Shown: positions 50,494-64,000 of the stretch, one piece after another
How positions within the stretch are numbered: the first letter of the stretch is position 1
How the letters are laid out: each line of letters opens with the position of its first letter
Assembly: GCA_050116835.1 (NCBI GenBank)
Contig: JASFNW010000006.1
Location: 457 to 64,456 of the forward strand
Source: Desulfobacterales bacterium
GTDB lineage: Bacteria > Desulfobacterota > Desulfobacteria > Desulfobacterales > JAHEIW01
Direction: 5' to 3'
DNA length: 64,000 bases
Position numbers and translations under genes: made by a program
Notes under the pieces: generated by a model
What the model saw: the letters and a program-made list of their open reading frames with translations, nothing else
Told to the model about the DNA's origin: nothing
The model's database searches: none

Positions 50494-51213
50494 TTACAGC
50501 GCACAGTATTTTTCATAGGCATCCTGGGAGAGAGTATGAATCGCGCTTTCGTGGCAGACACTGCCCTGATAGACGAGATAAGCGCGATCGCAGGTGTGTC
50601 TGGCAAAATTCAGGTTCTGTTCAGCCAGCAAGATCGATACCCCTTCAGACTTCAGACGTTGAATCGTCTGGGCCAGTTGTTCGACAATGACCGGTGCCAG
50701 CCCCTCCGAGGGTTCGTCTAAAATGATCATTTCGGGATTGCCCATCAGGGTGCGGGCGATGGTCAACATTTGCTGCTCACCCCCGCTGAGGGTGCCGCCG
50801 GCCTGATTGCGCCGTTCTGCTAAATTCGGAAACAGCTCAAATATGCGTTCAGGCGTCCAGGGCTCGAGACCCTCGCGCGGCGGCTGTTTGCCGACTTCCA
50901 GATTCTCCAAAATGGTCAGCTTGGAAAAAATCCGTCGATCCTCGGGCACGTAACCCAGCCCGAGGGCACAGGTTTTAAACGGCGGTAATTTTTGAATCGC
51001 CTTGCCCTTGTAAAATATTTGGCCGCTTTTGGGCGCGACGATACCCATTATGGATTTAAACGTTGTCGTCTTGCCGGCACCATTGCGCCCGAGCAACACA
51101 TTGACTTCTCCGCATTTAACCTCAAGGGCCATGTCAAATAATATCTGGGCCTTGCCGTAAAATGTGTTGAGGGCGTCAACCTTCAACATAATCTCTTGAG
51201 TGTCTGTGTGCAT
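50494..51213 (-). CDS. ABC transporter ATPase (LivF-like)
   Basis: GRNGAGKTTT, LSGGEQQMLTIARTL, MIILDEPSEG. The start may instead be ATG 51189 (MLKVDALNTFYG). Confidence 0.85.
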   Translation of the reverse strand: MHTDTQEIMLKVDALNTFYGKAQILFDMALEVKCGEVNVLLGRNGAGKTTTFKSIMGIVAPKSGQIFYKGKAIQKLPPFKTCALGLGYVPEDRRIFSKLTILENLEVGKQPPREGLEPWTPERIFELFPNLAERRNQAGGTLSGGEQQMLTIARTLMGNPEMIILDEPSEGLAPVIVEQLAQTIQRLKSEGVSILLAEQNLNFARHTCDRAYLVYQGSVCHESAIHTLSQDAYEKYCAL

Positions 51214-51523
51214 AGCAATTTATTCAACAATTATTTCAGAGGTCGAAGTGTTTTACATCCAAACCCTCACAGTGAGCAGAATGAACGATCGTTCGCGAAG
51301 ACCGCGCACTGTTTGAGTGCATTAGGGATCGTTGCAAAAGAACAGGAATCGGCAAGATGTCATGGATCTCAAATTAGATTCAAAACATGATAGCCTATTG
51401 TTATATAACCTTCACTGTTATTTTGCACCGAGCCCTTATGCACGAGTTTGCGCGGCTTTCGCGAGCGATTATTCATGGAGCAGCTCTCAGTTGCAAAAAC
51501 GCACCGATCCCTCGATTATTAGA

Positions 51524-52291
51524 TTATTCTTTCACCGGACCGGCAGTTTCACCGCGTCCCAGATAGATTTCCTTAACCCTTTCGTTCGCTTGAACTTCAT
51601 CCGGAGAGCCCTCGGCCACCAGCTCGCCGCGATTTAAGACAATGATGCGATCGGCATAGTTAAAGACCACATCCATATCATGTTCAGTGAAAAGCACACC
51701 GATATTTTGCGTGCGCACAATATCTTTTGTCAATTCCATCAGGTTTTGAGCCTCTGCCGGTCCCATCCCGGCTGTGGGTTCATCCATGAGCAGCAATCTT
51801 GGTTTATTTGCCAGTGCCACGGCCAGCTCCACGCGTTTCAGGTCGCCATAGGCCAAAACACCACAGGCCCGATCAGCCTGATCTTCAATCCCCAGCAATT
51901 TGAGCAGCGCCATAGATTCTTCTACATACAGACGGCTGACCTTCTTCAACAGAGATTTGGTGCGCCGGTGATAGGAAACAAGCACCATTTGAACATTTTC
52001 CAGTACCGACATGGAGGCAAAAGTGGAGGTTATCTGAAAAGTGCGACCGACGCCCAGCTTCCAGACATCTCTGGGTTTACTGCCATTGACGTTTTTTCCC
52101 ATGATGACAATATCACCATGATCCGGTCGAAGTTGCCCGTTGATGAGATTAAAACAGGTGGATTTTCCGGCCCCGTTGGGTCCGATCATTGCCAATAACT
52201 GCCCGTCTTTCAGTTGAAAGCTTACATCGACAATGGCTTTAACGCCGCCAAAGGCCTTATGAAGGTTATGCACTTCTAAAATCGTTGCCAT
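51524..52291 (-). CDS. ABC transporter ATPase (LivG-like)
   Basis: Start at ATG 52291 (MATILEVHNLHKAFGG). GPNGAGKST, YGDLKRVELAVAL, LLLMDEPTAG. The track extension to 52381 runs into a repeat element. Confidence 0.85.
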   Translation of the reverse strand: MATILEVHNLHKAFGGVKAIVDVSFQLKDGQLLAMIGPNGAGKSTCFNLINGQLRPDHGDIVIMGKNVNGSKPRDVWKLGVGRTFQITSTFASMSVLENVQMVLVSYHRRTKSLLKKVSRLYVEESMALLKLLGIEDQADRACGVLAYGDLKRVELAVALANKPRLLLMDEPTAGMGPAEAQNLMELTKDIVRTQNIGVLFTEHDMDVVFNYADRIIVLNRGELVAEGSPDEVQANERVKEIYLGRGETAGPVKE

Positions 52292-52348
52292 GGTATTCTC
52301 TTTGTCGCAACATGGTGGTCGGACATACTCTAAAAGCGATAATGCAAA

Positions 52349-52432
52349 AACCACCACGAAAACACGAAAGGAAAGAACCACGAAATAATTCTTTGGTTTT
52401 CGTATTTTAAAATTTTCGTGCTTTTGTGGTTA
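52349..52432. repeat. CACGAAA-type intergenic palindromic element (copy B)
   Basis: AACCACCACGAAAACACGAAAGGAAAGAACCACGAAA ... TTTTCGTATTTTAAAATTTTCGTGCTTTTGTGGTT. Lies between the permease and ATPase genes. Confidence 0.7.
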
Positions 52433-52472
52433 AATCATTCTTCCTGTCTTTTCGTACCTTAAAGTGATAAGG

Positions 52473-54311
52473 TTAATCTTCAAAATACTTGCCCAATCGA
52501 TTATGAATGGAGCCGGCGATCCCCTGCGGAAAGGCCACAACCAAGAATATAAATATACATCCGATAGCCAGCTGCCAAAAATCAAACCGCGCAATTTTAT
52601 CATGCAGCCAGGTATAGGCTGCTGAGCCGGCAATCGGTCCGAATAGCGTTTCAACTCCCCCCAACAAGACCATGAATAAAAACTCGAAGGAACGCGGGAT
52701 TGCCATTTCATCCGGAAACACACTGCCTTTTGAAAAAACGTAGATCCCGCCGGCAAGCCCGGCAAACACCCCTGCAATGGTGAAGGCCAACCACTGGTGC
52801 CGGCGCAGGTTAATTCCGATTGAGTCCACCCTGAGCGCTGAATCCCGGCAGGCGCGCATGGTATAGCCAAAAGGTGTAAATATGAAATAGCGCAGCAAAA
52901 GGATCCCACCGATGCATAAGACCATGGTCAGATAATAAAATACAACTTTCCCACTGGCCCAATCCGAAGGCCAGATCGTTAAAAGGCCATCATCTCCACC
53001 GGTAAATTCCCCCCATTGAAATACAATAGACCAACAGATTTGAGCAAAGGCCAGCGTCAGTATGGCAAAATACACACCGGACAACCGCACACAAAACCAA
53101 CCGATGATCAGTGCCAAAAGTCCCACAAATACGGGAGCAAAAAGGATGGCCAGTTCCATCGGGGAATTCAGATAATGCACCATCAGCGCCGCCGAATAAG
53201 CGCCCCCACCGAAAAAAGCCGCGTGCCCGAACGACACCATCCCGCCCGCCATCATAAAATACAAACTCATGCTCACTAACGCAAAAAGCGCAATTTCAGT
53301 CATCAATACCAAGCTGAACGAGTCAACAAATGCCGGCAAGACGAGAATGAATATGAGAAGCGCCAACCCCAGGAGTTTTAATTTTTTGGATGCCGGTTTC
53401 AGAATTGAATCCGCTATCTCCCCTGCACCATGCTCTTCAACTTCGGCTTTACCAAAAAGGCCGTGGGGGCGAATAATCAGCACCACTGCCATAGCCAGAA
53501 ACATCAGGACCAACGTGCTTTGCGGAAAGACCAGGACGCCAAATGAATTGAGCTCACCAATAATCACAGAAGCCAAATAAGCACCCGGAATACTGCCCAT
53601 TCCGCCGACCACTACGATCACAAAGGCGGCTGCGATCATGTTTAAATCCATCAGCAGATTGGCGCCGCCTTTGGGCAGCTGAACCGCACCGCCCAATCCG
53701 GCAATACAGGACCCTAAAAAAAATACCGTTGTAAACAGCCAGGTCTGGTTGACGCCTAAAGCATCTGACATTTCTCTGTCTTCAGTAGCTGCGCGGACTA
53801 AAATCCCCCAACGGGTATGACTCAACAATAACCAGAGGCCGATAAGAATCAACGGTGCAATAACGATAAGCGCAATGTCGTACTGCGGAAGTAAAGTCCC
53901 CATGACATCAATACTGCCCTCCAGACCCGGCGCCTGTTGGCCGAGGATATCTTCGGCACCGAATAGCCAACGGGACAGATCCTGAATGATTAGCACAACG
54001 CCAAAGGTGGCAAAGAGTATGAACAGCTCCGGCGCGCTGTAGAGCCGCCTCAACAAAAATACCTCCAACACAACGCCGATTAAACCGACAATCAGCGTCG
54101 CCAGAAAAATCCCTGCCCAGAAAGAGAGTGCGCCATGAGGGAAAAAATCGATCAGATAATAAGCCAGATAGGCACCGACCATATAAAATGAACCATGCGC
54201 CAGGTTAACGATGCGGGACACACCAAAAATTAAAGAGAGCCCGCAGGCCACCAAAAACAGGGCCGAAGCATCGGATAAGCCGGTCAGAAACTGTACAAGA
54301 TAAAAACCCAA
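52473..54311 (-). CDS. fused LivH-LivM-type ABC transporter permease
   Basis: 612 aa. The N-terminal half is LivH-like (..ACGLSLIFGVSRIVNLAHGSFYM..) and the C-terminal half is LivM-like (..GMVSFGHAAFFGGGAY..). Confidence 0.85.
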   Translation of the reverse strand: MGFYLVQFLTGLSDASALFLVACGLSLIFGVSRIVNLAHGSFYMVGAYLAYYLIDFFPHGALSFWAGIFLATLIVGLIGVVLEVFLLRRLYSAPELFILFATFGVVLIIQDLSRWLFGAEDILGQQAPGLEGSIDVMGTLLPQYDIALIVIAPLILIGLWLLLSHTRWGILVRAATEDREMSDALGVNQTWLFTTVFFLGSCIAGLGGAVQLPKGGANLLMDLNMIAAAFVIVVVGGMGSIPGAYLASVIIGELNSFGVLVFPQSTLVLMFLAMAVVLIIRPHGLFGKAEVEEHGAGEIADSILKPASKKLKLLGLALLIFILVLPAFVDSFSLVLMTEIALFALVSMSLYFMMAGGMVSFGHAAFFGGGAYSAALMVHYLNSPMELAILFAPVFVGLLALIIGWFCVRLSGVYFAILTLAFAQICWSIVFQWGEFTGGDDGLLTIWPSDWASGKVVFYYLTMVLCIGGILLLRYFIFTPFGYTMRACRDSALRVDSIGINLRRHQWLAFTIAGVFAGLAGGIYVFSKGSVFPDEMAIPRSFEFLFMVLLGGVETLFGPIAGSAAYTWLHDKIARFDFWQLAIGCIFIFLVVAFPQGIAGSIHNRLGKYFED

Positions 54312-54391
54312 AACTATTCCTTTATATGATCAAGATTAAACCATCGGAGGCGAATAATTCAAATATAGTGAAACTTACTCTGCACAATTAA

Positions 54392-54563
54392 ACTCGAAAT
54401 TCTAAGCACGAAATACGAAACAAATTCCAAATTCGAATATTTAAATGTTCAAAATATTAAAGATCGCAACTGAATATACATAGATGGAAAAATACGTAAT
54501 TGTGAGTTTAATAATTTGGTCATTCGAATTTGTTTCGAATTTCGATTTTCAATATTCGGATTT
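54392..54563. repeat. TTCGAAA-type inverted-repeat element
   Basis: Left arm ..CACGAAATACGAAACAAATTCCAAATTCGAAT (about 54405-54438). Right arm CATTCGAATTTGTTTCGAATTTCGATTTTC (54521-54550). The core CGAAACAAATTC / GAATTTGTTTCG is perfectly complementary. The AT-rich spacer is ~80 nt. Confidence 0.6.
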
Positions 54564-54564
54564 A

Positions 54565-54598
54565 GTTGCCGGTGCGGCTAAACGGCCACACCGGCAAC
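54565..54598 (-). terminator. strong hairpin directly after the binding-protein gene
   Basis: GTTGCCGGTG (54565-54574) / CACCGGCAAC (54589-54598), a perfect 10-bp stem. It lies 7 nt after the stop at 54605. There is no clear U-tract, so it is more likely an mRNA-stabilising or partial terminator. Confidence 0.5.
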
Positions 54599-54604
54599 TG
54601 AGTA

Positions 54605-55819
54605 TTATTGCGGTCTTAGTTTCATGACCTCTGCGTCACTGGGAAGATAATCTTTTCCGTCGGCGTATTTCCAATTTACCATGACACCTTTGCCATCTTT
54701 TAGAGCCGTGTAGCCCACATAGGCCCCCATGGTCGACTGGTGATCAATTTTGCGGTATGACATCGGGCCGACAATCGAATCGAAGGTTAAGCCTTCCATG
54801 GTGTCCACTAATTTTTCGGTGTCGAGCGTGCCGGCCTTCTTCAGCAGATGGTAAACCGAATACATGGTATTGTAACCCACCACCGAACCGGTGCGCGGAT
54901 AATCGTTGAACTTTTTTTGGTAGGCGGCCACAAACTTCATGTGCGCCGGCGTCTTGATATCATACCAGGGATATCCGGTGACCAGCCAGCCCTCCGGGGC
55001 CTCATCCTTCAGAGGATCCAGATATTCGGGTTCGCCGCTTAACAGGCTGACCATAAAGGTGTTGTCAAAGAAGCCTCTGAGTTTGCCTTCGCGCACAAAT
55101 TTAGCCAGATCGCTGCCGAAGGTTACATTGTAAACGGCTTCGGGTTTGGCGTCAGCCAGGGCCTGAATTTCGGCGCCGGCATTGATCTTAAACAGTGCCG
55201 GCCACTGTTCGGCCACAAACTCAACGTCCGGACGCTTGGCTTTTAAGACCTTTTTGAACGAGGCCACTGCATCTTTGCCATAAGCGTAATTCGGTGCAAT
55301 GGTGGCCCAGCGTTTGGCGGGATTTTTGGCAGCATCGACCGCCAGCATGGCTGCTTGCATATATGTCGATGGCCTCAACCGAAAGGTATAACGATTGCCC
55401 TTGGCCCAAACAACCGCATCGGACAGGGGTTCGGCGGCAATATAAAGCACTTTGTTACGCCCGGCAAAATCGGTTACCGCCAGTCCCACGTTGGAGAAAA
55501 AGGATCCCATGAGCAAAGCAACCTTATCTTTGCCGACCAACTCTTCAGCAACCTTTACAGCCTCACCCGGTTTTCCCTGATCATCCCGGGAAATGACTTC
55601 GATTTTTTTGCCCATCACACCGCCGGCGTTGTTGATTTCCTCCAGCGCCAGTTGCCAGCCATTGCGATAGGGGTGGGTGAAACTGGCCAATTTGCTGTAA
55701 GTCTGGACATCACCGACTTTAATGGTATCGGCGCCCAAAACTGCTGGCGCCGCTCCAAGAGCCAGCACGAGCGTGACGATCAGTAACGCAAACATGATTT
55801 TGCTAATCTTCATTTCCAA
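54605..55819 (-). CDS. periplasmic substrate-binding protein (LivK/PBP1 family)
   Basis: 404 aa. Signal peptide MKISKIMFALLIVTLVLALGAAPAVLGA and a type-1 PBP pattern. GGAGG RBS. Confidence 0.85.
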   Translation of the reverse strand: MEMKISKIMFALLIVTLVLALGAAPAVLGADTIKVGDVQTYSKLASFTHPYRNGWQLALEEINNAGGVMGKKIEVISRDDQGKPGEAVKVAEELVGKDKVALLMGSFFSNVGLAVTDFAGRNKVLYIAAEPLSDAVVWAKGNRYTFRLRPSTYMQAAMLAVDAAKNPAKRWATIAPNYAYGKDAVASFKKVLKAKRPDVEFVAEQWPALFKINAGAEIQALADAKPEAVYNVTFGSDLAKFVREGKLRGFFDNTFMVSLLSGEPEYLDPLKDEAPEGWLVTGYPWYDIKTPAHMKFVAAYQKKFNDYPRTGSVVGYNTMYSVYHLLKKAGTLDTEKLVDTMEGLTFDSIVGPMSYRKIDHQSTMGAYVGYTALKDGKGVMVNWKYADGKDYLPSDAEVMKLRPQ

Positions 55820-55864
55820 TTCCTCCTTTCCAAAGTTAGGAACTCCGGATGGTTTGGAGAGTCC

Positions 55865-56722
55865 CTAGTTTGATGGTGAAATGAGCTCCCGAACACTTTC
55901 TGTCATCACGAAAACTTCTTTTAGCGCGATCAAAGCGCCGACAATGCATCCCTGCCCGCAAAGGGCGTTGGCTTTCGACAGTGCCGTTTTAACGGCCTGA
56001 ATCTTTTTGCCGGTGCTCAAAGACCCCACGTCAACGGTAACGTGGATCCCTTTTAGATCCGTGTTGCAATCCATCTGTTCTGCCGGTGTCTGAGCGATGC
56101 TGCTGTCCTTCACGAAGCAAGCATTGGCTATCGCGGTGGCAGCTGCATCCGCAATCGAAGCATCGTTTGCAATCACGGTAACCGCCGATGCAATCCCCCG
56201 GGTGAAGCTTCTGCCGCCGAGACCGCTGGTGGTCACGCCCCAGGAAAACCGGCGGGCATCCAGATGGGCGATATGGGATATATCCAAACTGTTTATGTGC
56301 GGTCGGATACCGACGGTTGCCGTCTGACCGGCTGCCATCCGTATGGCGATATCACCCCCATTGTCCACAACCACCTTGGCGGGCCCGCGGCCAAACAGCC
56401 AGTCGGCCACGGCATCGGCAATCGTGCCTGCCACGGCCGCCATGGGTGTCAGGTCCGCATCGCCAACCGCTTTTACGCTTTGAATCATCCGCTGCGCAAG
56501 ATCGTTGTCCGGCACTGTCACGATTTGGTCGACAGGCAAAGCCAGTATCGTGCGCTGTTCGGCGATCGCTTCCAGGTATCCAAAGGATACCTCCGCGGCC
56601 TGCCGGCACAGGGCTAATTGCGGTGCGCCTTTTTGCCAGGCGCGGATGGCCAATCGCATCGGCCCGCATTCGGCCAATACGGTTTCTTCATCCGGCAACG
56701 TTATGAATCGTTCATAGGACAT
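55865..56722 (-). CDS. UPF0280 family protein (ApbE-like fold, from memory)
   Basis: 285 aa: ..CGPMRLAI..TPMAAVAGTIADAVADWL..VDNGGDIAI..TTSGLGGRSFTRGIASAVTVIA... Pattern typical of UPF0280. Its stop lies 4 nt from the upstream hnr-like gene. Confidence 0.6.
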   Translation of the reverse strand: MSYERFITLPDEETVLAECGPMRLAIRAWQKGAPQLALCRQAAEVSFGYLEAIAEQRTILALPVDQIVTVPDNDLAQRMIQSVKAVGDADLTPMAAVAGTIADAVADWLFGRGPAKVVVDNGGDIAIRMAAGQTATVGIRPHINSLDISHIAHLDARRFSWGVTTSGLGGRSFTRGIASAVTVIANDASIADAAATAIANACFVKDSSIAQTPAEQMDCNTDLKGIHVTVDVGSLSTGKKIQAVKTALSKANALCGQGCIVGALIALKEVFVMTESVRELISPSN

Positions 56723-56725
56723 TGC

Positions 56726-58249
56726 TTATTTTGACCCGTGCTTTTTGACTTTAAAGGGCTTGATGGCCTCGGTGTGCCCCCCCATTTCTTCATAATCTTT
56801 CAGTTCCATCGTGTACTCAAGGGGGCAGATGGTGGCCGGTGTGGGCGTCCAATAAAAAGCGCCGGACTTGACGCGTTCGACATCCACCATAAAAGAAATA
56901 CCACCCCCCGGCAGGATAAATCCGGGGGAGCCGCCGACGGTCAAATGGGCCCGGCCGTTATGCACCGCCCGGGTAAGTTTGATCGGATAGCGCGTCACAC
57001 CGGCCCGTGCGCTGCCGCCGGCACCGGCGGTATAGATGGCCGAAACCCGGGAAGGCTGGCAGCTGTCGGCAATTGCCTTGAGGGCGGCCTTGGCTTTTTT
57101 AGAAAGCGGTATTTCCGTTAGTGTACCTCCTTTACCGATTTTAAAAATGGCGCCGTTTTGGCCGGTGGTCTCGGTAATCAAAATGGTCATGCCCGGGCGG
57201 GCCATTTTCATGTCGACTGAGCTGATGACATCCACTGGATTGGAGATGGAGGTGCCGCCCCAGCCGTTGCCATGATCACCGAAATAGCGTCCCGGGGTGC
57301 TTTCGTTAAACTTCAGCCGGATACCGGTTGATTTGGCACCGGCGTAAACACCGGCCACATGGCGACTCATCTGTCCGGTAATGTGTGAATCAATGATAAT
57401 GACCTCATCGGCAGCCGCTGCCAGCAATGGCGCGAATAATCCCATGGTGGCGCTGCCGCAGCCCACCCGCATTCTGGTTGCTTCCCGACCGTCAATTACG
57501 GGCGGGTGGCCCACCTGAACTTCCAGCCGGCTGCCATTTTCGATTTTAAGACTCACGCGTTTGCGATTGGCAATTTCGGTAATGGTTCTGGCAATTACAA
57601 AACCATTTTTCCCGGTCAAACGGTTGACACCGCCGATGTGCAGCATTTTTGAACCGTATTGCTCTGTCTCCACCATGCCGACTTCTCTTTTACCTGCAAA
57701 AATGAGATCGCCCTCTTTGCCGATGGGGATGTCCGTATCGATTTTGACGATGATAGAGCTGTAGCTCAACGGTACTTCGGTTACGACGGTGACCACATCC
57801 ACACCGCGTCTTTTGGTCTGCACAATTTGGGGCGCCGGTTTGCAGTCCGGGTAGGTTGTCCCGGCGCCGATGGCCGTAATCAGGGGTTTGCGGATATTGG
57901 CCTTGGGCTCGGGACCGACGATTTCTTTGACATCGGCATAGGTGTGCAGGCGCGTCAGGCGCAGAAGTTTTCCCCCTTCGTTGCGGTACCGGTGGCAGGC
58001 GCCGACAAACCCGGGCTGGATCCAGCATTTGATCGGACAGGCATCACATTCAATCGCCTCTGCCGGCATGCTGTCAGCGTCAATCACGGCATCACTTTCG
58101 CAAACGCGCATGCACACGCCGCAGTGGGTGCACCAGTGATCATTGATCAGCGCCTTTTGCTTGACCAGTTTAACGGCATCGACCGGGCAATCGCGCACGC
58201 AATAACCGCAGCCGATGCATTTTTCAGTATCTACCCTCATTGTAGGCAA
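56726..58249 (-). CDS. hnr: 6-hydroxynicotinate-reductase-like iron-sulfur (flavo)protein
   Basis: 507 aa. N-terminal 2 x 4Fe-4S ferredoxin motifs (CIGCGYCVRDCP, CTHCGVCMRVC) plus further Cys (CDACPIKC..GACH). It sits beside the enamidase-like and XDH-family genes, as in the Eubacterium barkeri nicotinate cluster. Confidence 0.6.
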   Translation of the reverse strand: MPTMRVDTEKCIGCGYCVRDCPVDAVKLVKQKALINDHWCTHCGVCMRVCESDAVIDADSMPAEAIECDACPIKCWIQPGFVGACHRYRNEGGKLLRLTRLHTYADVKEIVGPEPKANIRKPLITAIGAGTTYPDCKPAPQIVQTKRRGVDVVTVVTEVPLSYSSIIVKIDTDIPIGKEGDLIFAGKREVGMVETEQYGSKMLHIGGVNRLTGKNGFVIARTITEIANRKRVSLKIENGSRLEVQVGHPPVIDGREATRMRVGCGSATMGLFAPLLAAAADEVIIIDSHITGQMSRHVAGVYAGAKSTGIRLKFNESTPGRYFGDHGNGWGGTSISNPVDVISSVDMKMARPGMTILITETTGQNGAIFKIGKGGTLTEIPLSKKAKAALKAIADSCQPSRVSAIYTAGAGGSARAGVTRYPIKLTRAVHNGRAHLTVGGSPGFILPGGGISFMVDVERVKSGAFYWTPTPATICPLEYTMELKDYEEMGGHTEAIKPFKVKKHGSK

Positions 58250-58295
58250 TACCTATTTTTCGATATTTTCTTGGTGACGGTTCACCCATCCATTG

Positions 58296-58710
58296 CTCCC
58301 TCGCCCCCTTTAGGGGGAGAGGGTTTAGGGTGAGGGGGATTCATTCAAATGCAAAAGAATTTTCCCCAATACGGCATTCTTTTCTTTTAAAACATCACTG
58401 TTCCAGAATCTTAAGATACGATAACCCCTATTTCTCAGAAATTCTGAACGGTTATCATCCTGTTCCTGGGTCAATGCATGTTGGCCACCATCAATCTCGA
58501 TGATGATTTTTTTCTCGGCACAAACAAAATCAACTATAAAAGGCCCAATAGGTCGCTGGCGGCGAAATTTGAAACCACCTAACTGACGATTGCGGACACT
58601 GTTCCATATTGCTCGCTCCGCATCTGTCATATTTTTTCTCAGGATTCTGGCTCTTTGGCTCACTCCTGCTCCCCTCACCCTACCCCTCTCCCCTCGCCGA
58701 GGGGAGAGGG
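58296..58710. mobile_element. DUF559 cassette bounded by imperfect ~40-bp inverted repeats
   Basis: Left end CTCCCTCGCCCCCTTTAGGGGGAGAGGGTTTAGGGTGAGGGGGA (58296-58339). The reverse complement of the right end (58671-58710) is CCCTCTCCCCTCGGCGAGGGGAGAGGGGTAGGGTGAGGGG. Each end is itself a GC-rich hairpin. The cassette sits inside the ena-hnr spacer of an operon. Confidence 0.55.
58325..58678 (-). CDS. DUF559 (Vsr-like endonuclease fold) domain protein
   Basis: 117 aa: ..ARILRKNMTDAERAIWNSVRNRQLGGFKFRRQRPIGPFIVDFVCAEKKIIIEIDGGQHA..RSEFLRNRGYRILRFWNSDVL.., the DUF559 signature. GTG start. Both ORF ends extend into the flanking repeats. Confidence 0.8.
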   Translation of the reverse strand: MRGAGVSQRARILRKNMTDAERAIWNSVRNRQLGGFKFRRQRPIGPFIVDFVCAEKKIIIEIDGGQHALTQEQDDNRSEFLRNRGYRILRFWNSDVLKEKNAVLGKILLHLNESPSP

Positions 58711-58778
58711 AATTGGAGTGTCAGAAGATTTTAATGAGTCAGATATAATAAACGAACACCATGCTAAAATCTAATTCT

Positions 58779-59939
58779 TTACAAAACTTTCGGCTTGCGT
58801 ACCGGCGGCGGCGTATTGCGGCTTTTGGCCACCACAATCTCGCCATCGACCAGCACCATGGCAACTGCGGGCACATCGCCGGCTTTAATCGCAGCCAGCG
58901 CATCCGCCCCCACCGAGCCCATAGGTGTATCCATGATCACCAGATCCGCCTCATTTCCCTCCGAAATCACACCCCGGGGCAGTTTGTGCACGCGGGCCGT
59001 GTTGCCGGTAGCCATACAGATGGCCTGTTCTGGTCTGATGGCCGTCAGACTGGCCAGGTGGCAGATGACTCTGAGCACACCCAGCGGAATCACCCCTGTA
59101 CCGGAAGGCGCATCGTTTCCGATAATGATGCGGCCCAGGGCATTTTGTTCTATGCACAGGTTAGCGGTTTCCACCGCCACCTTGGGATTGCCGCAGTGAA
59201 CGATTTCCAGGGCCAGATCGGTTTCTTTTACCAGACGCTGCACTTCATCCATGGCAACTGCGGTCGGCCCGCCGTTGATATGAGACACGATATCGGGATT
59301 TGCCTGAATGACCATTTCAGCTGTCACCGTGCTGCTGCCCGGAATAGAGGTCCCGCCGGCATGCATCATCACTGTCATACCGTACTCTTTGGCCCATTGC
59401 ACCATCGGAGCAGCATCTTCTGGATTCTTGATGGTCCCCAGTCCAATTTCGCCGACGGTTCGTACACCTTCTTTGGCCAGTTCTTCAAAGTCACTTTTGA
59501 CAAGACCTTTTTCCAGTATCACCGAACCACCGACAACTTTACCGCCACCCGGTCTAAAATTGGCAAAGGATTTCGCGGCTAACATCGCCAGCGCTTTGGT
59601 GCCGGCCGGATCCTTGGGGCGCCCCGGCAGATGGACTTCCCCGGCGGAAATAAAGGTGGTCACACCCCCATGGACCTCGCTTTCTAAGAATCCGGTCTGA
59701 TTTTGTCTGGGGGTATAGTCACCTAAAACCGTGTGACAGTGCGAATCAAACAAACCGGGCATGACGGTCGCGCCATCACAGTCAATGATCGTTTTGGTAT
59801 CGGCGGCATCGAGATTGCCTTCCGGGCCAACTTGTTTGATCTTGCCGTCTTCGATTAAAATGGCATCGCCGGGCAAGATCGGATCGGCAATATCGCCGCT
59901 GACAATTGTTCCAATATTTTTTAGAAGGACTTCAGGCAT
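58779..59939 (-). CDS. ena: enamidase-like amidohydrolase (1,4,5,6-tetrahydro-6-oxonicotinate hydrolase family)
   Basis: Start at ATG 59939 (MPEVLLKNIGTIVSGDI, GGAGGTGG RBS; ATGCCTGA overlap with the upstream stop). Amidohydrolase motifs (PGLFDSHCH, MHAGG, SHINGG, GNDAPSG). Overall similarity to my recollection of the E. barkeri enamidase sequence. Confidence 0.65.
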   Translation of the reverse strand: MPEVLLKNIGTIVSGDIADPILPGDAILIEDGKIKQVGPEGNLDAADTKTIIDCDGATVMPGLFDSHCHTVLGDYTPRQNQTGFLESEVHGGVTTFISAGEVHLPGRPKDPAGTKALAMLAAKSFANFRPGGGKVVGGSVILEKGLVKSDFEELAKEGVRTVGEIGLGTIKNPEDAAPMVQWAKEYGMTVMMHAGGTSIPGSSTVTAEMVIQANPDIVSHINGGPTAVAMDEVQRLVKETDLALEIVHCGNPKVAVETANLCIEQNALGRIIIGNDAPSGTGVIPLGVLRVICHLASLTAIRPEQAICMATGNTARVHKLPRGVISEGNEADLVIMDTPMGSVGADALAAIKAGDVPAVAMVLVDGEIVVAKSRNTPPPVRKPKVL

Positions 59940-62220
59940 TTTCCACCTCCCTGGGACCAAAATGGCCGGCTTTAATACTGGTTTCCAATACACGCTCTAA
60001 ATTGGCGGGTAACTGATAAATCCTCTTACCGAGTGCATTTGCGAGGGCATTGACGATCGCCGGCGCGGTCGGAATCAAAGCCGGCTCGCCCACACCCTTG
60101 GCGCCGAACGGACCGCTCGGCTCCGGTGATTCCACGATGATGGGGATAATTTCCGGCATGTCGGCACAGGTGGGAATCAGATAATCTTTGAATGAAAGGG
60201 TTTGCCCGGGGACAAAAGCTTCCATCAGCGCAAAACCCATCCCCATGGCCACCCCGCCGCAGATCTGCCCTTTGACGTTTTCCGGATGAATCGCCTTGCC
60301 GACATCATGGGCTGCCACGATTTTTTCCACCTGCACTTCGCCGGTCAGGGTATCCACGCGAACGAGCGCCAGCTGGCAGGCAAAGGCATAAGTCGCGTAA
60401 GGCACGCCCTGACCGGTATCCGGATCCAATGGTACGGTATCCGGATCAAAAAATCCATTCCAGGTCAGCGGCAGCCCTTTTTTATGAAGTCGCTGTGCCA
60501 GCCACGCAAAATCCACCCTGTTGTCGAAATCATTGGCATCGCTGACATATCCGGAATCCAACCGCAAAGCCGCCTTGGGGACTTTCAGTTTGTTCACTGC
60601 TTCGGTCATCAACACATCGGCCAGTTTTTCGGCAGCATCTTTGACCGCATTGCCGGAAATATAGGTCTGGCGACTGGCAGAGGTCGCACCGGCATTCGTG
60701 GTACATTTGGTGTCTGCCACGACCATGCGGATATCTTCGGGCGTCAGGCCCAGGGATTCAGCGGCAATCTGCGCCAGCACCGTGGTGGATCCCTGCCCAA
60801 GTTCTGCGCAGCCGGTAAACAGCGTGATATGACCGTTCATGTCCATGGTCATTCTGGCTGTTGATGGGTTTTGTACACCGGTGTTGCCGATGCCGTACCA
60901 CATACAGCCGATACCCATGCCTCTTTTGATATGGGAACGACCGGTTTCATTCAGCCAGCGCGACCGGGCCTGCTCATAATGCGGCTGAATGGCTTCCAGG
61001 CATTCACCGATCCCGACACTGGCCGTTAATTTCTGGCCGGTGGCCGTCACCGACCCCTCTTTTAAGGCATTGGTGCGGCGCATTTCCAGCGGGTCGATGC
61101 CGAGCTTGCGGGCCAGCAGATCCATTTGAGATTCATGGGCAATGGCAATCTGGGGTGTGCCGAAACCCCGCATGGCACCGGAAAACGGGTTGTTGGTATA
61201 CACACAGAGGCTTGTAACATCCACGTTTTCAATCTGATAGGGACCGGTGGCGTGCACGGCCGAGCGCGATGCCACGGGTATGCCATACGATGCATACGCA
61301 CCGGTATCACAGGTAACGACAGCCTGCATGGCCAATAGCCGACCGTCGCGGTCCGCTCCGGTTTTTATCTTCATTTCGAGCGGATGCCGTTTAGCGGTGG
61401 CCAGATAGGCCTCTTCCCGGCTGTAGACGATGCGTACCGGTCTTTTGAGGTGATGGAGCGCCAGACCGATAAAACCCTGCACATTCATATCCAGTTTAGA
61501 TCCGAATCCGCCTCCGGTGGCGGCTTGTATGATTCGCACCTGCTGATCCTCGAGCCCCAACAGGCTGGTGACTTCTTTATGGTCGTAATGGGGATTTTGC
61601 GTGGAAGCGAAGATTACCAGCGAACCATCATAGTCCACATAGCCGGCACCGGCATCCGGCTCCAGATAACTGTGCTCGATGTGTCCGGTTTGGTATGTCT
61701 TTTCAACGACCGCGGCGCATTGTTTAAATGCCGCTTCAACATCACCTTTTTTGATTTTGCGCGTGAACAGCAAATTGCCTTTTTCATGGATCTTGGGCGC
61801 ATCGGGAGCCAGAGCCTCTGCAGGGCTGCGCACGGCCGGCAGTTCAGAATAGATAACCTCAATGGCTTTGAGCGCCTGATCGGCTGCCGCTTCGGTTTCA
61901 GCCGCAACCAGAGCAACCGGTTCGCCGATGCTGCGCACCTTGTCATCTGCCAGAAGCGGCTGATCTTTATTAATGATGCCGACTCGATTTTGTCCCGGGA
62001 TATCTTCAGCGGTGAAAATGCAAACGACACCCTCGATCACGGCCGCTTTTTCGAGCTTGATTTTTTTGATCCGGGCGTGGGCCGTTGTGCTTCGCAAAAC
62101 TCTAAGGATCAGCGGATCGTCAAGTTTCAGATCGGCGCTGAAAATCGGCTCACCCCGCAGTCTTTTTTCTAAACCGATTTTGCGGATGTTTTGCCCTATG
62201 GTTTTATATTCCGCTTTCAT
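59932..62220 (-). CDS. xanthine-dehydrogenase-family molybdopterin subunit (nicotinate-dehydrogenase-like, unsplit)
   Basis: 762 aa. Aldehyde-oxidase/XDH a/b hammerhead domain plus the two Mo-pterin-binding domains (..GGGFGSK.., ..RGFG.PQ.., ..GEPA..). Confidence 0.85.
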   Translation of the reverse strand: MKAEYKTIGQNIRKIGLEKRLRGEPIFSADLKLDDPLILRVLRSTTAHARIKKIKLEKAAVIEGVVCIFTAEDIPGQNRVGIINKDQPLLADDKVRSIGEPVALVAAETEAAADQALKAIEVIYSELPAVRSPAEALAPDAPKIHEKGNLLFTRKIKKGDVEAAFKQCAAVVEKTYQTGHIEHSYLEPDAGAGYVDYDGSLVIFASTQNPHYDHKEVTSLLGLEDQQVRIIQAATGGGFGSKLDMNVQGFIGLALHHLKRPVRIVYSREEAYLATAKRHPLEMKIKTGADRDGRLLAMQAVVTCDTGAYASYGIPVASRSAVHATGPYQIENVDVTSLCVYTNNPFSGAMRGFGTPQIAIAHESQMDLLARKLGIDPLEMRRTNALKEGSVTATGQKLTASVGIGECLEAIQPHYEQARSRWLNETGRSHIKRGMGIGCMWYGIGNTGVQNPSTARMTMDMNGHITLFTGCAELGQGSTTVLAQIAAESLGLTPEDIRMVVADTKCTTNAGATSASRQTYISGNAVKDAAEKLADVLMTEAVNKLKVPKAALRLDSGYVSDANDFDNRVDFAWLAQRLHKKGLPLTWNGFFDPDTVPLDPDTGQGVPYATYAFACQLALVRVDTLTGEVQVEKIVAAHDVGKAIHPENVKGQICGGVAMGMGFALMEAFVPGQTLSFKDYLIPTCADMPEIIPIIVESPEPSGPFGAKGVGEPALIPTAPAIVNALANALGKRIYQLPANLERVLETSIKAGHFGPREVENA

Positions 62221-62258
62221 GAACTTTGCCCAGAAAAATTCCTATTAAAAAAATAATT

Positions 62259-62342
62259 AATCACGAAAGCACGAAAGGAAGAAAGCAGGAAAGGAAAATA
62301 ATAAACTTTCATGTTTTTAAGTTTTCGTGTTTTCGTGGTTTT
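62259..62342. repeat. CACGAAA-type intergenic palindromic element (copy C)
   Basis: AATCACGAAAGCACGAAAGGAAGAAAGCAGGAAAGG ... GTTTTCGTGTTTTCGTGGTTTT. Lies between the FAD-subunit and Mo-subunit genes. Confidence 0.7.
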
Positions 62343-62388
62343 AATTTACTGTTTAATCTAAAAAGCATATATTTATTTTTCTTGATCA

Positions 62389-63246
62389 TTATTGAATCAA
62401 AGGATGCATCATACGCATAAACAGCCCCTGAATGGCCGGCTCCTTGTACACTGCTGAGGGTCTTCGGCCGGTGATGCTGAACATTTTGTCCGCCAGCAGC
62501 TTACCGGCTTCCCATAAGATATGTTCAGCGGGCACTTTACCGGTCATGTATTCTTCGATTTCACGGAATCGATGCGGGGTTGGGGTACACGATCCCAATG
62601 CAAATCGCATATACGCAATTGAACCACCCTCATCCTGATAGGCCATGGCGGCCATGCTCATGCGTGCGATGGCCAGCTCCTGTCGCCGACCAATTTTCTG
62701 AAAATCAGCAAAAGTCACCTCCTGGGGCCTGGGCTGCAAAATAAAATGGCTGATGATTTCATTCGAATGCAAACTGCAGTGATAGGGCCCGCTGGCCATT
62801 TCTTCAATCGTGACGTGACGCTGACCCTCTGAGGTCAACACCACCGCTTCGGCATCATGAATCAGCAACGGCGGTATGGTATCGCCGCACGGAGAACAGT
62901 GAGCGACGTTGCCACCGATGGTGGCCACATTCCGTATTTGCCGGCTGGCAAATTTTTCTGCTGCCTTTCTCAGGGCCGGCGCCATGTCGGCGATGGTGTC
63001 GGACTCTAAAAGTTCACTTATGGTTACCGCCGCGCCGATAGACAGTTGACCGTCGCGCATCTCAATCTGTTTTAAATCTTCCAGTCGGCTGACGTCTAAG
63101 AGAAAGCGGGTTTTTAAAGCACCGGATCGCAAATCGACCATGATGTCCGTACCACCGGCCAGGATTTTGGTTTCCGCTCCGTTGGTATTTAGAAAATGAA
63201 GGGCATCTTCTAAATTCGTGGCTTTGATGTAGTCAACGTCAAACAT
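62389..63246 (-). CDS. XDH/CO-dehydrogenase-family FAD-binding subunit (CoxM/NdhF-like)
   Basis: 285 aa: ..KILAGGTDIMVDL.., ..IRNVATIGGNVA.., C-terminal CO_deh_flav_C-like region. Confidence 0.85.
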   Translation of the reverse strand: MFDVDYIKATNLEDALHFLNTNGAETKILAGGTDIMVDLRSGALKTRFLLDVSRLEDLKQIEMRDGQLSIGAAVTISELLESDTIADMAPALRKAAEKFASRQIRNVATIGGNVAHCSPCGDTIPPLLIHDAEAVVLTSEGQRHVTIEEMASGPYHCSLHSNEIISHFILQPRPQEVTFADFQKIGRRQELAIARMSMAAMAYQDEGGSIAYMRFALGSCTPTPHRFREIEEYMTGKVPAEHILWEAGKLLADKMFSITGRRPSAVYKEPAIQGLFMRMMHPLIQ

Positions 63247-63369
63247 GATGGTATTTCAATCTGCGACTCTTGTTGCCGAGTAGTGGTTTCAAAAGCCGCA
63301 AACCAACAGAAAAGGGGTTTTGAAACGGCTTTTGCTCAATTTTGCATTAGCCATATGGCCAAAGCAGCG

Positions 63370-63864
63370 TTAATCCTTTTTGAAAGCGGCCTGCTTTTCA
63401 GCGGCGGCTTCGACGGCTTCCATAATGCTGTGATACCCGGTGCAGCGGCAGAGGTTGCCCGAAATCGCTTTGACAATCTCACTGCGCTTGGGGTGCGGGT
63501 GTTTTGCCAGCAGGGCACTGGTGCTCATCAACAGCCCGGGTGTACAAAATCCGCACTGAACGGCGTGCTTTTCGGCAAAGGCTTCTTGAATCGGGTGCAG
63601 GCCGCCGCTTTGACTTAGACCTTCGACTGTCCACACGTCGCGCCCGTCCAACTGGGCCGCAAATATCAGGCAGGCGTTGACGGCGCGACCCTCAACCACT
63701 ATGGTACAGGCCCCGCATTCGCCAATGCCACATCCTTCTTTGGTGCCTTTGAGGTCAAGCCTGTCTCTGATGAGTTCAAGCGCCGTCATCCCCGCCGGGA
63801 TATGCAGCTGCTTCTTTTCTCCGTTGATGGTACACTGAATTGTTATGCGATTTGCTTTCGTCAT
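63370..63864 (-). CDS. XDH-family (2Fe-2S)-binding small subunit (CoxS/NdhS-like)
   Basis: CGIGECGACTV-type and CGFCTPG / CRCTGY motifs. Start at ATG 63864 (MTKANRITIQCTING, GGAG 6 nt upstream). The track start at 63876 is TTG. Confidence 0.9.
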   Translation of the reverse strand: MTKANRITIQCTINGEKKQLHIPAGMTALELIRDRLDLKGTKEGCGIGECGACTIVVEGRAVNACLIFAAQLDGRDVWTVEGLSQSGGLHPIQEAFAEKHAVQCGFCTPGLLMSTSALLAKHPHPKRSEIVKAISGNLCRCTGYHSIMEAVEAAAEKQAAFKKD

Positions 63865-64000
63865 GTCCAACTCCAAGCTGACATATCTGAATCAAAAAAC
63901 CTCACGCAAAGCCGCAAAGATATTTTTTGATATGAAAATTAGTGGTTCATCCATCAAGCCCCGGGCTCTATTTCGAAAGAGGTCATGTTTTTTTCTGAAT

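Follow-up and report, generated by a model that had tools for sequence, protein, structure and literature searches.

A putative operon for nicotinate import and degradation with a predicted B12-free lower branch in a Desulfobacterales genome

Results

Gene content of the locus

The window, a stretch of 64,000 nucleotides, belongs to a Desulfobacterales genome which is 97% complete and carries dsrAB (dsrA, 615 bits against a cut-off of 392.85). In the open reading frame list and the Pfam and NCBIfam scans, eleven genes lie on the minus strand, in the order and at the positions given in a preliminary description of this DNA. From the high-coordinate end, they are as follows.

63370..63876, minus strand: NdhS-like [2Fe-2S] subunit, 168 aa (Pfam Fer2_2 and Fer2)
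62389..63246, minus strand: NdhF-like FAD subunit, 285 aa (Pfam FAD_binding_5 and CO_deh_flav_C)
59932..62220, minus strand: Mo-pterin subunit, equivalent to NdhL plus NdhM, 762 aa (Pfam Ald_Xan_dh_C, MoCoBD_1 and MoCoBD_2)
58779..59939, minus strand: enamidase, 386 aa from the ATG at 59939 (PDB 2VUN)
58296..58710, minus strand: DUF559 cassette with a Vsr-like endonuclease fold, ORF 58325-58678 (Pfam DUF559, E 1.2e-41)
56726..58240, minus strand: 6-hydroxynicotinate-reductase-family Fe-S protein, 504 aa, with an N-terminal 2x[4Fe-4S] ferredoxin domain
55865..56722, minus strand: UPF0280 protein, ApbE-like, 285 aa, 3 nt downstream of the reductase gene
54605..55813, minus strand: LivK-type periplasmic binding protein, 402 aa with signal peptide (Pfam Peripla_BP_6, E 9.6e-69)
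52473..54311, minus strand: fused LivH-LivM permease, 612 aa, with two BPD_transp_2 stretches
51524..52381, minus strand: LivG-type ABC ATPase (Pfam ABC_tran and BCA_ABC_TP_C)
50494..51213, minus strand: LivF-type ABC ATPase, 67-89% identical to proteins at the same position in related loci

The most likely start of the enamidase is the ATG at 59939, which gives the 386 aa first described; its longest ORF has 404 aa. For the Fe-S protein, the ATG at 58240 is the most likely start and gives 504 aa as in its relatives, three fewer than first described. Translation of the binding protein most likely begins at 55813, and the product carries a Sec-type signal peptide. The true start of the LivG-type ATPase may be further inside its ORF, since its relatives align from residue 25-34. 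For comparison, we used 63 genome loci with an enamidase.

Hydroxylase, reductase and enamidase

The Mo subunit aligns first to NdhL and then to NdhM of nicotinate dehydrogenase: residues 3-411 have 3HRD_A (NdhL) as the best PDB match (E 7.7e-122), and residues 432-740 match 3HRD_B (NdhM, E 7.7e-72). These consecutive matches indicate an unsplit form and confirm the earlier claim of a single polypeptide. As this is the usual state outside Firmicutes, it is not remarkable. The sole PDB match of the FAD subunit at E <= 1e-25 is the nicotinate dehydrogenase chain 3HRD_C (E 1.2e-30). The 2Fe-2S subunit is generic in its family, with 3HRD_D as just the sixth PDB match (E 6.5e-41), and 25 related loci have it in the same place. 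By homology, the three-subunit hydroxylase would convert nicotinate to 6-hydroxynicotinate. On contig C124, the host genome encodes another XDH-type hydroxylase cluster, accompanied by a TRAP transporter.

The Fe-S protein belongs to a family whose gene is present next to the enamidase gene in 49 of the 63 loci. Relatives 74-86% identical bear the name 6-hydroxynicotinate reductase in NCBI or JGI, as do some of the members adjoining enamidase. Enamidase and Mo hydroxylase are neighbors of this family in Desulfobacterota and Firmicutes alike, and the family also occurs in Firmicutes loci with a complete lower pathway of the Eubacterium barkeri type. In a 31-sequence alignment (A2), C17, C21, C40, C43, C46, C50, C68, C71, C75, C85, C264, and C397 are invariant and C11 and C14 are nearly invariant (>=90%). 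The invariant cysteines are compatible with two [4Fe-4S] clusters and one further cluster. Synteny, source names, and the cysteine pattern support a probable orthology to E. barkeri Hnr, and the conserved family beside enamidase and Mo hydroxylase in two phyla bears out the reductase-like assignment in the preliminary description. By homology, this Fe-S flavoprotein would reduce 6-hydroxynicotinate to 1,4,5,6-tetrahydro-6-oxonicotinate.

As had been supposed, the amidohydrolase is closely related to E. barkeri enamidase over its full length (2VUN, E 1e-151, 508.7 bits). In longest-ORF numbering, its residues 20-404 align without gaps to residues 2-386 of 2VUN, and the next PDB match follows at E 1.5e-05. 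A generic dihydroorotase-like enzyme is ruled out by this full-length match. The enamidase would open the ring to give 2-formylglutarate and ammonium, a step assigned by homology. Taken as a whole, the upper module very probably leads from nicotinate to 2-formylglutarate by the E. barkeri-type route.

A candidate flavin transferase downstream of the reductase gene

In 41 of the 44 loci with room for it, the UPF0280 gene follows the reductase gene within 700 nt. Each of the 27 members of the family has a Pfam ApbE match at E <= 0.01, and none of the scores inspected reaches the Pfam cut-off. The predicted model of UPF0280 (pLDDT 94.8) retrieved the uncharacterized DVU1097 (2O34), its nearest structure, as the first Foldseek match and exclusively ApbE/Ftp/FmnB flavin transferases (PF02424) thereafter, with probability 1.00 and E of 1e-5 to 1e-3. 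The motifs GGD, TSG, and D-x-x-x-T align with the host genome's own ApbE in hhalign. UPF0280 differs from these transferases in length (285 aa vs about 310-340 aa) and in being cytoplasmic.

These features suggest that UPF0280 matures the reductase, probably via attachment of its flavin. However, the proposed client is without the canonical [S/T]GA[S/T] site of the ApbE/Ftp/FmnB systems. Its sole ApbE-like target motif is GSAT, and Thr268 of this motif is replaced by Met in 1 of 31 sequences, which also counts against the role. We give flavin attachment by UPF0280 an even chance.

The ABC importer

For the binding protein, the match to PDB 3I45 spans the entire mature chain (residues 30-403, E 3.2e-152). 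This structural-genomics binding protein was reportedly crystallized with nicotinic acid bound. Residues 7-287 of the permease are UrtB-like and residues 387-600 are UrtC-like, and the LivH-LivM fusion is found in all nine related loci carrying the permease whole. The binding protein and permease genes adjoin the nicotinate cluster in 10 Desulfobacterales loci; in 10 other loci, TRAP transporters replace them. We also inspected 42 metagenome loci of >=9 kb whose binding proteins are 53-67% identical to that of the window. Reductase, enamidase, or PF06684 genes are also carried by 24 of these, with reductase and enamidase products 39-51% identical to those of the window. Synteny in these two independent sets strengthens the earlier idea of a dedicated ABC importer.

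Nicotinate would be captured by the periplasmic binding protein and imported through the fused permease with the two ATPases, and we consider this predicted function likely. The system shares the Peripla_BP_6 binding protein, the LivH/LivM-type permease domains, and the LivG/LivF-type ATPases with the LIV/HAAT-family importers. Unlike in those, the permease halves are fused and the genomic neighbors are for nicotinate catabolism, not amino acids.

The lower branch beyond the window

The end of the window's contig (C6) overlaps the start of contig C232 by exactly 127 nt. The operon continues there with a PF06684 protein, a methylmalonate-semialdehyde-dehydrogenase (MMSDH)-like enzyme, and a GntR/FCD regulator. 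The PF06684 gene is a near-universal partner of enamidase (present in 43 loci). The later steps had been described as possibly lying beyond position 64,000, truncated, or different; of these, "different" is what stood, and the E. barkeri form beyond 64,000 did not. Of the hgd/hmd/mgm/mii genes envisaged past the window, Mgm, Mii, and Hmd were not found in the operon or anywhere in the 97% complete host genome by tblastn, nor was MutL. Family searches of the same genome gave no match for PrpF or MutL, and it has no detected B12 mutase, PrpF isomerase, or reactivase. Among related loci, 20 have the MMSDH-like dehydrogenase and 9 have genes of the B12 branch (Mgm, Hmd, or Mii); no locus has both.

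The C232 dehydrogenase is 82% identical to its counterpart in locus L018. Its top family is TIGR01722 with 350 bits, below the MMSDH cut-off of 448.5, and the runner-up family reaches 264. The PDB matches at E <= 1e-60 number ten, each of them an MMSDH, and MmsA/IolA (1T90, 4ZZ7, 5TJR) are its best solved relatives. As in MmsA/IolA, its catalytic Cys293 lies in a GQRC motif, and 34 residues upstream Asn takes the place of the general-base Glu. Its residues read as the active-site signature of a CoA-acylating MMSDH. They include the Arg-Cys pair to which the β-carboxylate binds in MMSDH. Besides the score below the cut-off, what sets it apart from MmsA/IolA is that its family branch travels with enamidase (20 loci). 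A paralogue with 41% identity is encoded on contig C80.

That 2-formylglutarate is the substrate is a guess from genomic context. Since this compound is a 2-substituted malonate semialdehyde, the chemistry would equal that of MmsA/IolA: 2-formylglutarate, CoA, and NAD+ would give glutaryl-CoA, CO2, and NADH. Glutaryl-CoA may then feed the route of the host's Acd-type glutaryl-CoA dehydrogenase (752.8 bits against a cut-off of 470). We lean slightly towards this glutaryl-CoA step. In an alternative resembling the Azorhizobium branch, 2-formylglutarate would first be decarboxylated, spontaneously or with help of the PF06684 protein, which has no assigned role; the dehydrogenase, which misses the MMSDH cut-off, would oxidize glutarate semialdehyde to glutarate in free form, to be activated by a CoA transferase or ligase encoded elsewhere. 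There is a precedent, reportedly described by Kitts et al. in 1992. We consider this alternative unlikely: the enzyme has the Arg-Cys pair and is without the Glu of hydrolytic aldehyde dehydrogenases, PF06684 occurs also in Firmicutes loci with the B12 branch, for which a decarboxylation would be detrimental, and none of the clusters has a conserved CoA transferase or ligase.

Substrate and integrity of the operon

The operon may instead target a different N-heterocyclic carboxylate, e.g. another pyridine carboxylate, and merely resemble a nicotinate system. The Mo subunit is just moderately close to E. barkeri NdhL and NdhM, and specificity in this hydroxylase family is not readable from similarity. 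The cluster is also without the PncA-like nicotinamidase gene present in 12 related loci, and the hydroxylase cluster on C124 could be added to these points. Against this, nicotinate dehydrogenase is the best solved relative of both the FAD and Mo subunits, the enamidase is very close to a characterized enzyme over its full length, and enamidase, reductase, and hydroxylase travel together across phyla. The nicotinamidase-like gene (NF008623; 166 bits, cut-off 174) belongs to the cluster in those 12 relatives. We therefore regard another substrate as quite improbable and nicotinate as the substrate with considerable confidence.

The DUF559 cassette, between the enamidase and reductase genes, is outside the pathway. 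Its gene is a true insertion, since the four nearest relatives (L009, L010, L012, and L013) have no cassette and a mere 150-220 nt between the flanking genes. The sequence CCCTCTCCCC has just three copies in the window, all flanking the cassette, which could in principle disturb transcription of downstream genes. Enamidase is absent from both other genomes of the genus, so the nicotinate trait is accessory. A decaying operon, in which the cassette and repeat-filled spacers uncouple the reductase, UPF0280, and transporter genes and the pathway is dead in this strain, would fit the insertion being specific to this genome, the spacers of 293 and 310 nt in the transporter part, and the two congeners, but is very improbable as all ORFs are intact and full-length compared with relatives, the cassette sits in an intergenic gap on the operon's strand, and a terminator scan gave sites no more numerous than in shuffled sequence.

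Discussion

We read the stretch from 50494 to 63876 as most of a single operon for nicotinate import and degradation with a B12-free lower branch, at a probability of roughly 0.72. The E. barkeri cluster, in the 2006 work of Alhapel et al., reportedly consists of NdhFSLM, Hnr, and Ena, then Hgd, Hmd, Mgm, Mii, DmdAB, and Dml; the first three nicotinate genes are said to have been remarked there already in several Proteobacteria. Both systems share the first three steps, namely Mo/FAD/Fe-S hydroxylation, reduction of the ring with an Fe-S flavoprotein, and its opening by enamidase. The Mo protein is split into NdhL and NdhM in E. barkeri, whereas it is one polypeptide in the window. Firmicutes loci have a sigma-54 activator and this operon a GntR/FCD regulator. 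Unlike E. barkeri, this operon has a predicted LIV-type ABC import, and its host has one MMSDH-like dehydrogenase in place of the B12-branch genes.

Azorhizobium caulinodans, an aerobe, also reaches 2-formylglutarate by reduction and hydrolytic ring opening, and passes B12-free through the glutarate/glutaryl-CoA pool to crotonyl-CoA. Kitts et al. (in the 1992 work) are said to have found that it decarboxylates, oxidizes to glutarate, and then makes glutaryl-CoA. These are separate steps ending in CoA transfer, whereas this operon, whose host is a sulfate reducer with the Desulfococcus-type Acd glutaryl-CoA dehydrogenase, is predicted to use one CoA-acylating, decarboxylating reaction. The upper module itself is ordinary; the lower branch and the importer are the predicted variants. 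In this sulfate reducer, a single dehydrogenase step would stand in for the eight-gene B12-dependent branch of E. barkeri.

Gene organization of the nicotinate cluster

The order of eleven minus-strand genes claimed in the preliminary description of the nicotinate cluster was confirmed by the ORF list together with Pfam and NCBIfam scans. The genes and elements for which positions are needed here are as follows.

54605-55813, minus strand: LivK-type binding protein with a Sec-type signal peptide; start most likely at 55813
55865-56722, minus strand: UPF0280, an ApbE-like protein
56726-58240, minus strand: Fe-S protein of the 6-hydroxynicotinate reductase family; likely start at the ATG at 58240, giving 504 aa, the same length as its relatives
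58296-58710: DUF559 cassette with a 117-aa gene
63287-63330: palindromic element of about 44 nt in the spacer between the FAD and 2Fe-2S subunit genes

The amidohydrolase (386 aa) likely starts at the ATG at 59939. In the permease, LivH and LivM are genuinely fused: residues 7-287 are UrtB-like and residues 387-600 are UrtC-like. A scan for promoters and terminators gave site counts no higher than in shuffled sequence, and no transcription units were drawn from it.

Two elements lie in spacers between genes. The DUF559 cassette is without counterpart in the four nearest relatives, and its hairpin-forming ends hold the window's only three copies of CCCTCTCCCC; it looks like a mobile unit inserted in an intergenic gap of the operon. 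The palindromic element, GTTTCAAAA ... TTTTGAAAC, recurs at 81-91% identity on seven or more further contigs of this genome and is probably a REP-like repeat.

The upper pathway

The upper three steps are the ordinary Eubacterium barkeri module. Pfam domains assign three adjacent ORFs to separate [2Fe-2S], FAD, and Mo-pterin modules of the XDH family. Against PDB sequences, residues 3-411 of the Mo subunit matched NdhL of the E. barkeri nicotinate dehydrogenase (3HRD_A; E 7.7e-122) and residues 432-740 matched NdhM (3HRD_B; E 7.7e-72), both ranking above 4-hydroxybenzoyl-CoA reductase. The sole PDB match of the FAD subunit at E <= 1e-25 was 3HRD_C, and the matches of the small Fe-S subunit were generic and uninformative. 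Whereas the Mo protein of E. barkeri is split into NdhL and NdhM, a single 762-aa ORF spans both here, as had been noticed from the sequence. We found the split form in Firmicutes loci and one Desulfobacter MAG; because a single polypeptide is the rule elsewhere, the unsplit subunit is unremarkable. As the majority state among the 33 loci carrying a Mo subunit, it was rejected as an unusual feature. Splitting thus follows lineage and is not needed for function.

Nicotinate dehydrogenase of the E. barkeri type has a labile selenium cofactor. The one indirect sign of it in this genome is YqeB (TIGR03309), a selenium-linked Mo-cofactor factor encoded on another contig, C124 (347.7 bits; cut-off 220). 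YqeB, MocA, and XdhC-type maturation genes directly follow the nicotinate cluster in two compared loci (L028, 13605-15913; L057, 18186-20896), an arrangement consistent with a Mo cofactor of the E. barkeri kind, which is selenium-dependent and contains a cytidine dinucleotide. A second XDH-family hydroxylase cluster is present on C124 (5400-15400; loci L002, L087, and L088), consisting of FAD, Fe-S, and Mo subunits, the last 38% identical to that of the window, with a TRAP transporter, a MocA-like cytidylyltransferase, and YqeB. The cluster of one Desulfobacter MAG (L063) is a mosaic: its enamidase and reductase are 68-70% identical to those of the window, and its downstream hydroxylase genes are Firmicutes-like, with a split Mo subunit (47-50% identity) and an FAD subunit at 31%, suggesting a module swap.

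The 386-aa amidohydrolase had been called enamidase-like, and it proved to be a close full-length relative of the E. barkeri enamidase (EC 3.5.2.18; 2VUN), far from other amidohydrolases: the match has E 1e-151 and is ungapped over 385 residues, and the next PDB match has E 1.5e-05. A scan of species-representative genomes with the enamidase gave 63 loci, E. barkeri not being among them, and their gene content was scored by tblastn and ORF clustering. Most are Desulfobacterota MAGs at 65-94% identity; the Firmicutes loci, at 57-65%, belong to Sedimentibacter, Pelosinus, Peptococcaceae, Veillonellaceae, and Clostridium. Of 151 genomes sampled within the order, 13 had the enamidase, and neither of the two congeners did; the trait is therefore accessory and patchy.

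The Fe-S protein has an N-terminal 2x[4Fe-4S] ferredoxin domain and no other Pfam or NCBIfam match. It belongs to a large family, in which relatives at 74-86% identity bear the name 6-hydroxynicotinate reductase in NCBI or JGI records, as does an Atlas cluster at greater distance. Its gene occurs in 49 of the 63 enamidase loci and adjoins the enamidase gene in complete E. barkeri-type loci (L047, L048, L052, L053, and L060 among others). Because these Firmicutes loci hold the whole E. barkeri-type lower branch, position fixes the family identity (Hnr, EC 1.3.7.1). In an alignment of 31 sequences from two phyla, the eight cysteines of two CxxCxxCxxxC motifs are invariant at six positions and nearly so at C11 and C14, and C68, C71, C75, and C85 are invariant. 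The E. barkeri enzyme reportedly has two [4Fe-4S] clusters and one [2Fe-2S] cluster (Alhapel et al. 2006); the cysteine sets agree with this, providing for two [4Fe-4S] clusters and one further cluster. With the whole 507-residue model, Foldseek and VIA-align lists were filled by ferredoxin-domain matches, and no solved relative of residues 140-500 surfaced among them; this gives no evidence of a new fold.

A predicted lower branch beyond the window

The window covers positions 457-64456 of its contig (C6), which extends about 700 nt past the window end and then stops. In the closest long loci (L014, L016, L017, and L018), GntR, aldehyde dehydrogenase, and PF06684 genes lie, in this order, upstream of the 2Fe-2S gene. 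The PF06684 protein ('AA_synth', formerly DUF1185; E 3e-71) is found in 43 of the 63 enamidase loci. In the genome under study, its residues 30-197 are encoded at the very end of C6 and its residues 1-71 on a second contig, C232, which also encodes a GntR regulator and a dehydrogenase sharing 82% identity with its L018 counterpart. C6 ends with the same 127 nt with which C232 begins; therefore the contigs join and the operon continues. An NAD kinase gene on C232 (L072, 3266-4120, plus strand) is divergent from the GntR regulator of the operon; this proximity may reflect a connection with pyridine-nucleotide metabolism or mere chance.

The C232 dehydrogenase resembles CoA-acylating methylmalonate-semialdehyde dehydrogenases (MMSDHs). 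Its top family is TIGR01722 at 350.1 bits, below the family cut-off of 448.5 and 86 bits ahead of the next family (264), and all ten of its solved relatives at E <= 1e-60 are MMSDHs. The nucleophile motif is GQRC (Cys293), and Asn259 (INGNGKNH), 34 residues upstream, occupies the place of the general-base Glu of hydrolytic aldehyde dehydrogenases. Both features are conserved across the enamidase-linked dehydrogenase branch.

The preliminary description had suggested that later steps of the E. barkeri type may lie beyond position 64,000, or that the pathway may be different. Firmicutes loci carry the full lower branch: an Hgd-like dehydrogenase, a serine-dehydratase-like Hmd, an aconitase-type pair, a B12-binding mutase, a PrpF isomerase, a MutL-type reactivase, and a PEP-mutase/ICL-type lyase. 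In the genome under study (97% complete), tblastn returned nothing related to the mutase, the isomerase, Hmd, or the reactivase, and a family search found no PrpF or MutL match. We rejected a B12 branch just past the window, as C6 continues into C232 and these searches show that the genome lacks the branch; the suggestion of a different pathway stood, with the MMSDH-like dehydrogenase as its probable enzyme. Across the compared loci, the dehydrogenase occurs in 20 and B12-branch genes in nine, with no locus having both, and one Firmicute (L057) has the dehydrogenase.

The genome also encodes an Acd-type glutaryl-CoA dehydrogenase (NF045552; 752.8 bits vs 470) and carries dsrA with dsrB. In Azorhizobium, biochemical work reportedly established a B12-free route onward by way of the glutarate pool (Kitts et al. 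1992, cited in PMC9304392). In the searchable literature, we found no paper joining 2-formylglutarate to glutaryl-CoA or describing a one-step MMSDH-like conversion, and a search on 'niacini' sulfate reducers found nothing.

UPF0280 as a candidate flavin transferase

Of the 44 loci whose sequence extends far enough past the reductase gene, 41 have a UPF0280 gene within 700 nt downstream of it. All 27 aligned members match Pfam ApbE (PF02424) weakly (E <= 0.01; best 2.3e-07), and the window protein scores 21.2 bits, below the cut-off of 25.6. Its model (pLDDT 94.8) has the ApbE fold. Foldseek returned 39 matches at E <= 0.001: the uncharacterised DVU1097 (2O34), then only ApbE/Ftp/FmnB flavin transferases. 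N121, G122, G123, D124, S166, G167, D192, and T196 are invariant and T165 nearly so. In an hhalign comparison (probability 68%, E 4.9e-05) with the ApbE that this genome encodes, NGGD, TSG, and D192-x-x-x-T196 fall opposite IGGE, TSG, and ADGLAT. We take the GGD, TSG, and Asp/Thr motifs to have a role in Mg binding.

Because the E. barkeri reductase carries a covalently bound flavin, we infer that UPF0280 attaches flavin to the reductase, which is the most economical reading. A candidate flavin site in the reductase is GCGSA, which is invariant across the 31 sequences; the next residue, Thr268, is kept in 30 of them and replaced by Met in one. This site is similar, although not identical, to the [S/T]GA[S/T] site of ApbE clients. 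A literature search found nothing on UPF0280.

A LIV-type importer linked to nicotinate catabolism genes

The importer consists of a Peripla_BP_6 binding protein, two BPD_transp_2 permease domains, and two ATPases of the LIV/HAAT family. In 10 Desulfobacterales loci, UPF0280 is followed by the corresponding binding protein (77-92% identical), the fused permease, and both ATPases. Ten other loci have a TRAP DctPQM set next to the nicotinate cluster, and a PTS-EIIC-like permease is present in two Firmicutes loci. A role in substrate import fits this pattern, since the catabolic core is constant while the transporter type varies. The binding protein matches the structural-genomics entry 3I45 over the whole mature chain (E 3.2e-152); this structure reportedly contains nicotinic acid, and a literature search found nothing on it.

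All matches in a protein search with the binding protein were at least 82% identical, which is uninformative on distant lineages. As an independent test, binding-protein cluster representatives at 43-51% identity were gathered by an exhaustive search, metagenome contigs were scanned with their alignment, and the count was limited to 42 loci of at least 9 kb. The fused permease adjoins the binding protein in all of them except L106, where the contig ends right after the binding-protein gene. Reductase, enamidase, or PF06684 genes are also present in 24 of the 42, usually in the order reductase, UPF0280, PF06684, binding protein, permease. Since the reductase and enamidase there are only 39-51% identical to those of the window and show the same linkage, the link between importer and catabolism holds far outside the lineage. 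The proposed coupling of a LIV-family ABC transporter to nicotinate genes is supported by the 10 Desulfobacterales loci and these 24 metagenome loci. We found no paper in the searchable literature on a LIV-type nicotinate importer or on a partnership of UPF0280 with the reductase.

Other transport arrangements were seen among the compared loci. Two Syntrophaceae MAGs (L042 and L044, 23-6260) have another LIV-type binding protein (cluster c52), accompanied by separate LivH and LivM genes; all of these lie with an MMSDH-like dehydrogenase upstream of the hydroxylase genes. A LIV-family importer thus seems to have been recruited a second time, independently. A pyrrolysine-free MttB-family methyltransferase (PF06253, E 7e-63) is found beside or inside the nicotinate cluster in L016, L029, L037, L039, L040, and L065. 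It is accompanied by its own TRAP transporter in L029, L037, L039, and L040, none being seen in L016, and its gene lies between those of the reductase and UPF0280 in L040. The enzyme may demethylate N-methylnicotinate (trigonelline) to nicotinate. The nicotinate cluster of the genome under study has no MttB-family gene.

Proposed pathway and its significance

To our knowledge, E. barkeri is the only source of gene-level information on how nicotinate is degraded anaerobically, and its route includes a long branch that requires B12. In the present locus, homology and synteny are the basis for assigning the first four enzymes. Nicotinate, the substrate that we infer for the ABC system, would be imported and then hydroxylated at C6 by the Mo hydroxylase. 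The reductase would carry out a two-electron ring reduction, and the enamidase would open the ring hydrolytically with release of ammonium. The MMSDH-like dehydrogenase is predicted to catalyze oxidative decarboxylation to glutaryl-CoA, which the Acd route would convert to acetyl-CoA, coupled to sulfate reduction.

The most far-reaching form of this reading is tentative, and we give it roughly a 40% probability as a whole. It holds that nicotinate degradation proceeds without B12 in sulfate reducers and in many other anaerobes, with an enamidase-linked MMSDH branch converting 2-formylglutarate directly to glutaryl-CoA and CO2. The 3I45-type binding protein and the fused permease would form a nicotinate-specific ABC importer, and UPF0280 would be a cytoplasmic flavin transferase dedicated to the reductase.

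The analysis offers testable functions for four poorly annotated families: the MMSDH-like branch, UPF0280, PF06684, and the LIV-type binding protein, which databases label as branched-chain amino acid-specific. Sulfate reducers already use the glutaryl-CoA pathway for aromatic compounds, and a shorter route into that pathway is suggested by this locus together with its many relatives. If true, this route would explain the complete oxidation of nicotinate by sulfate reducers.
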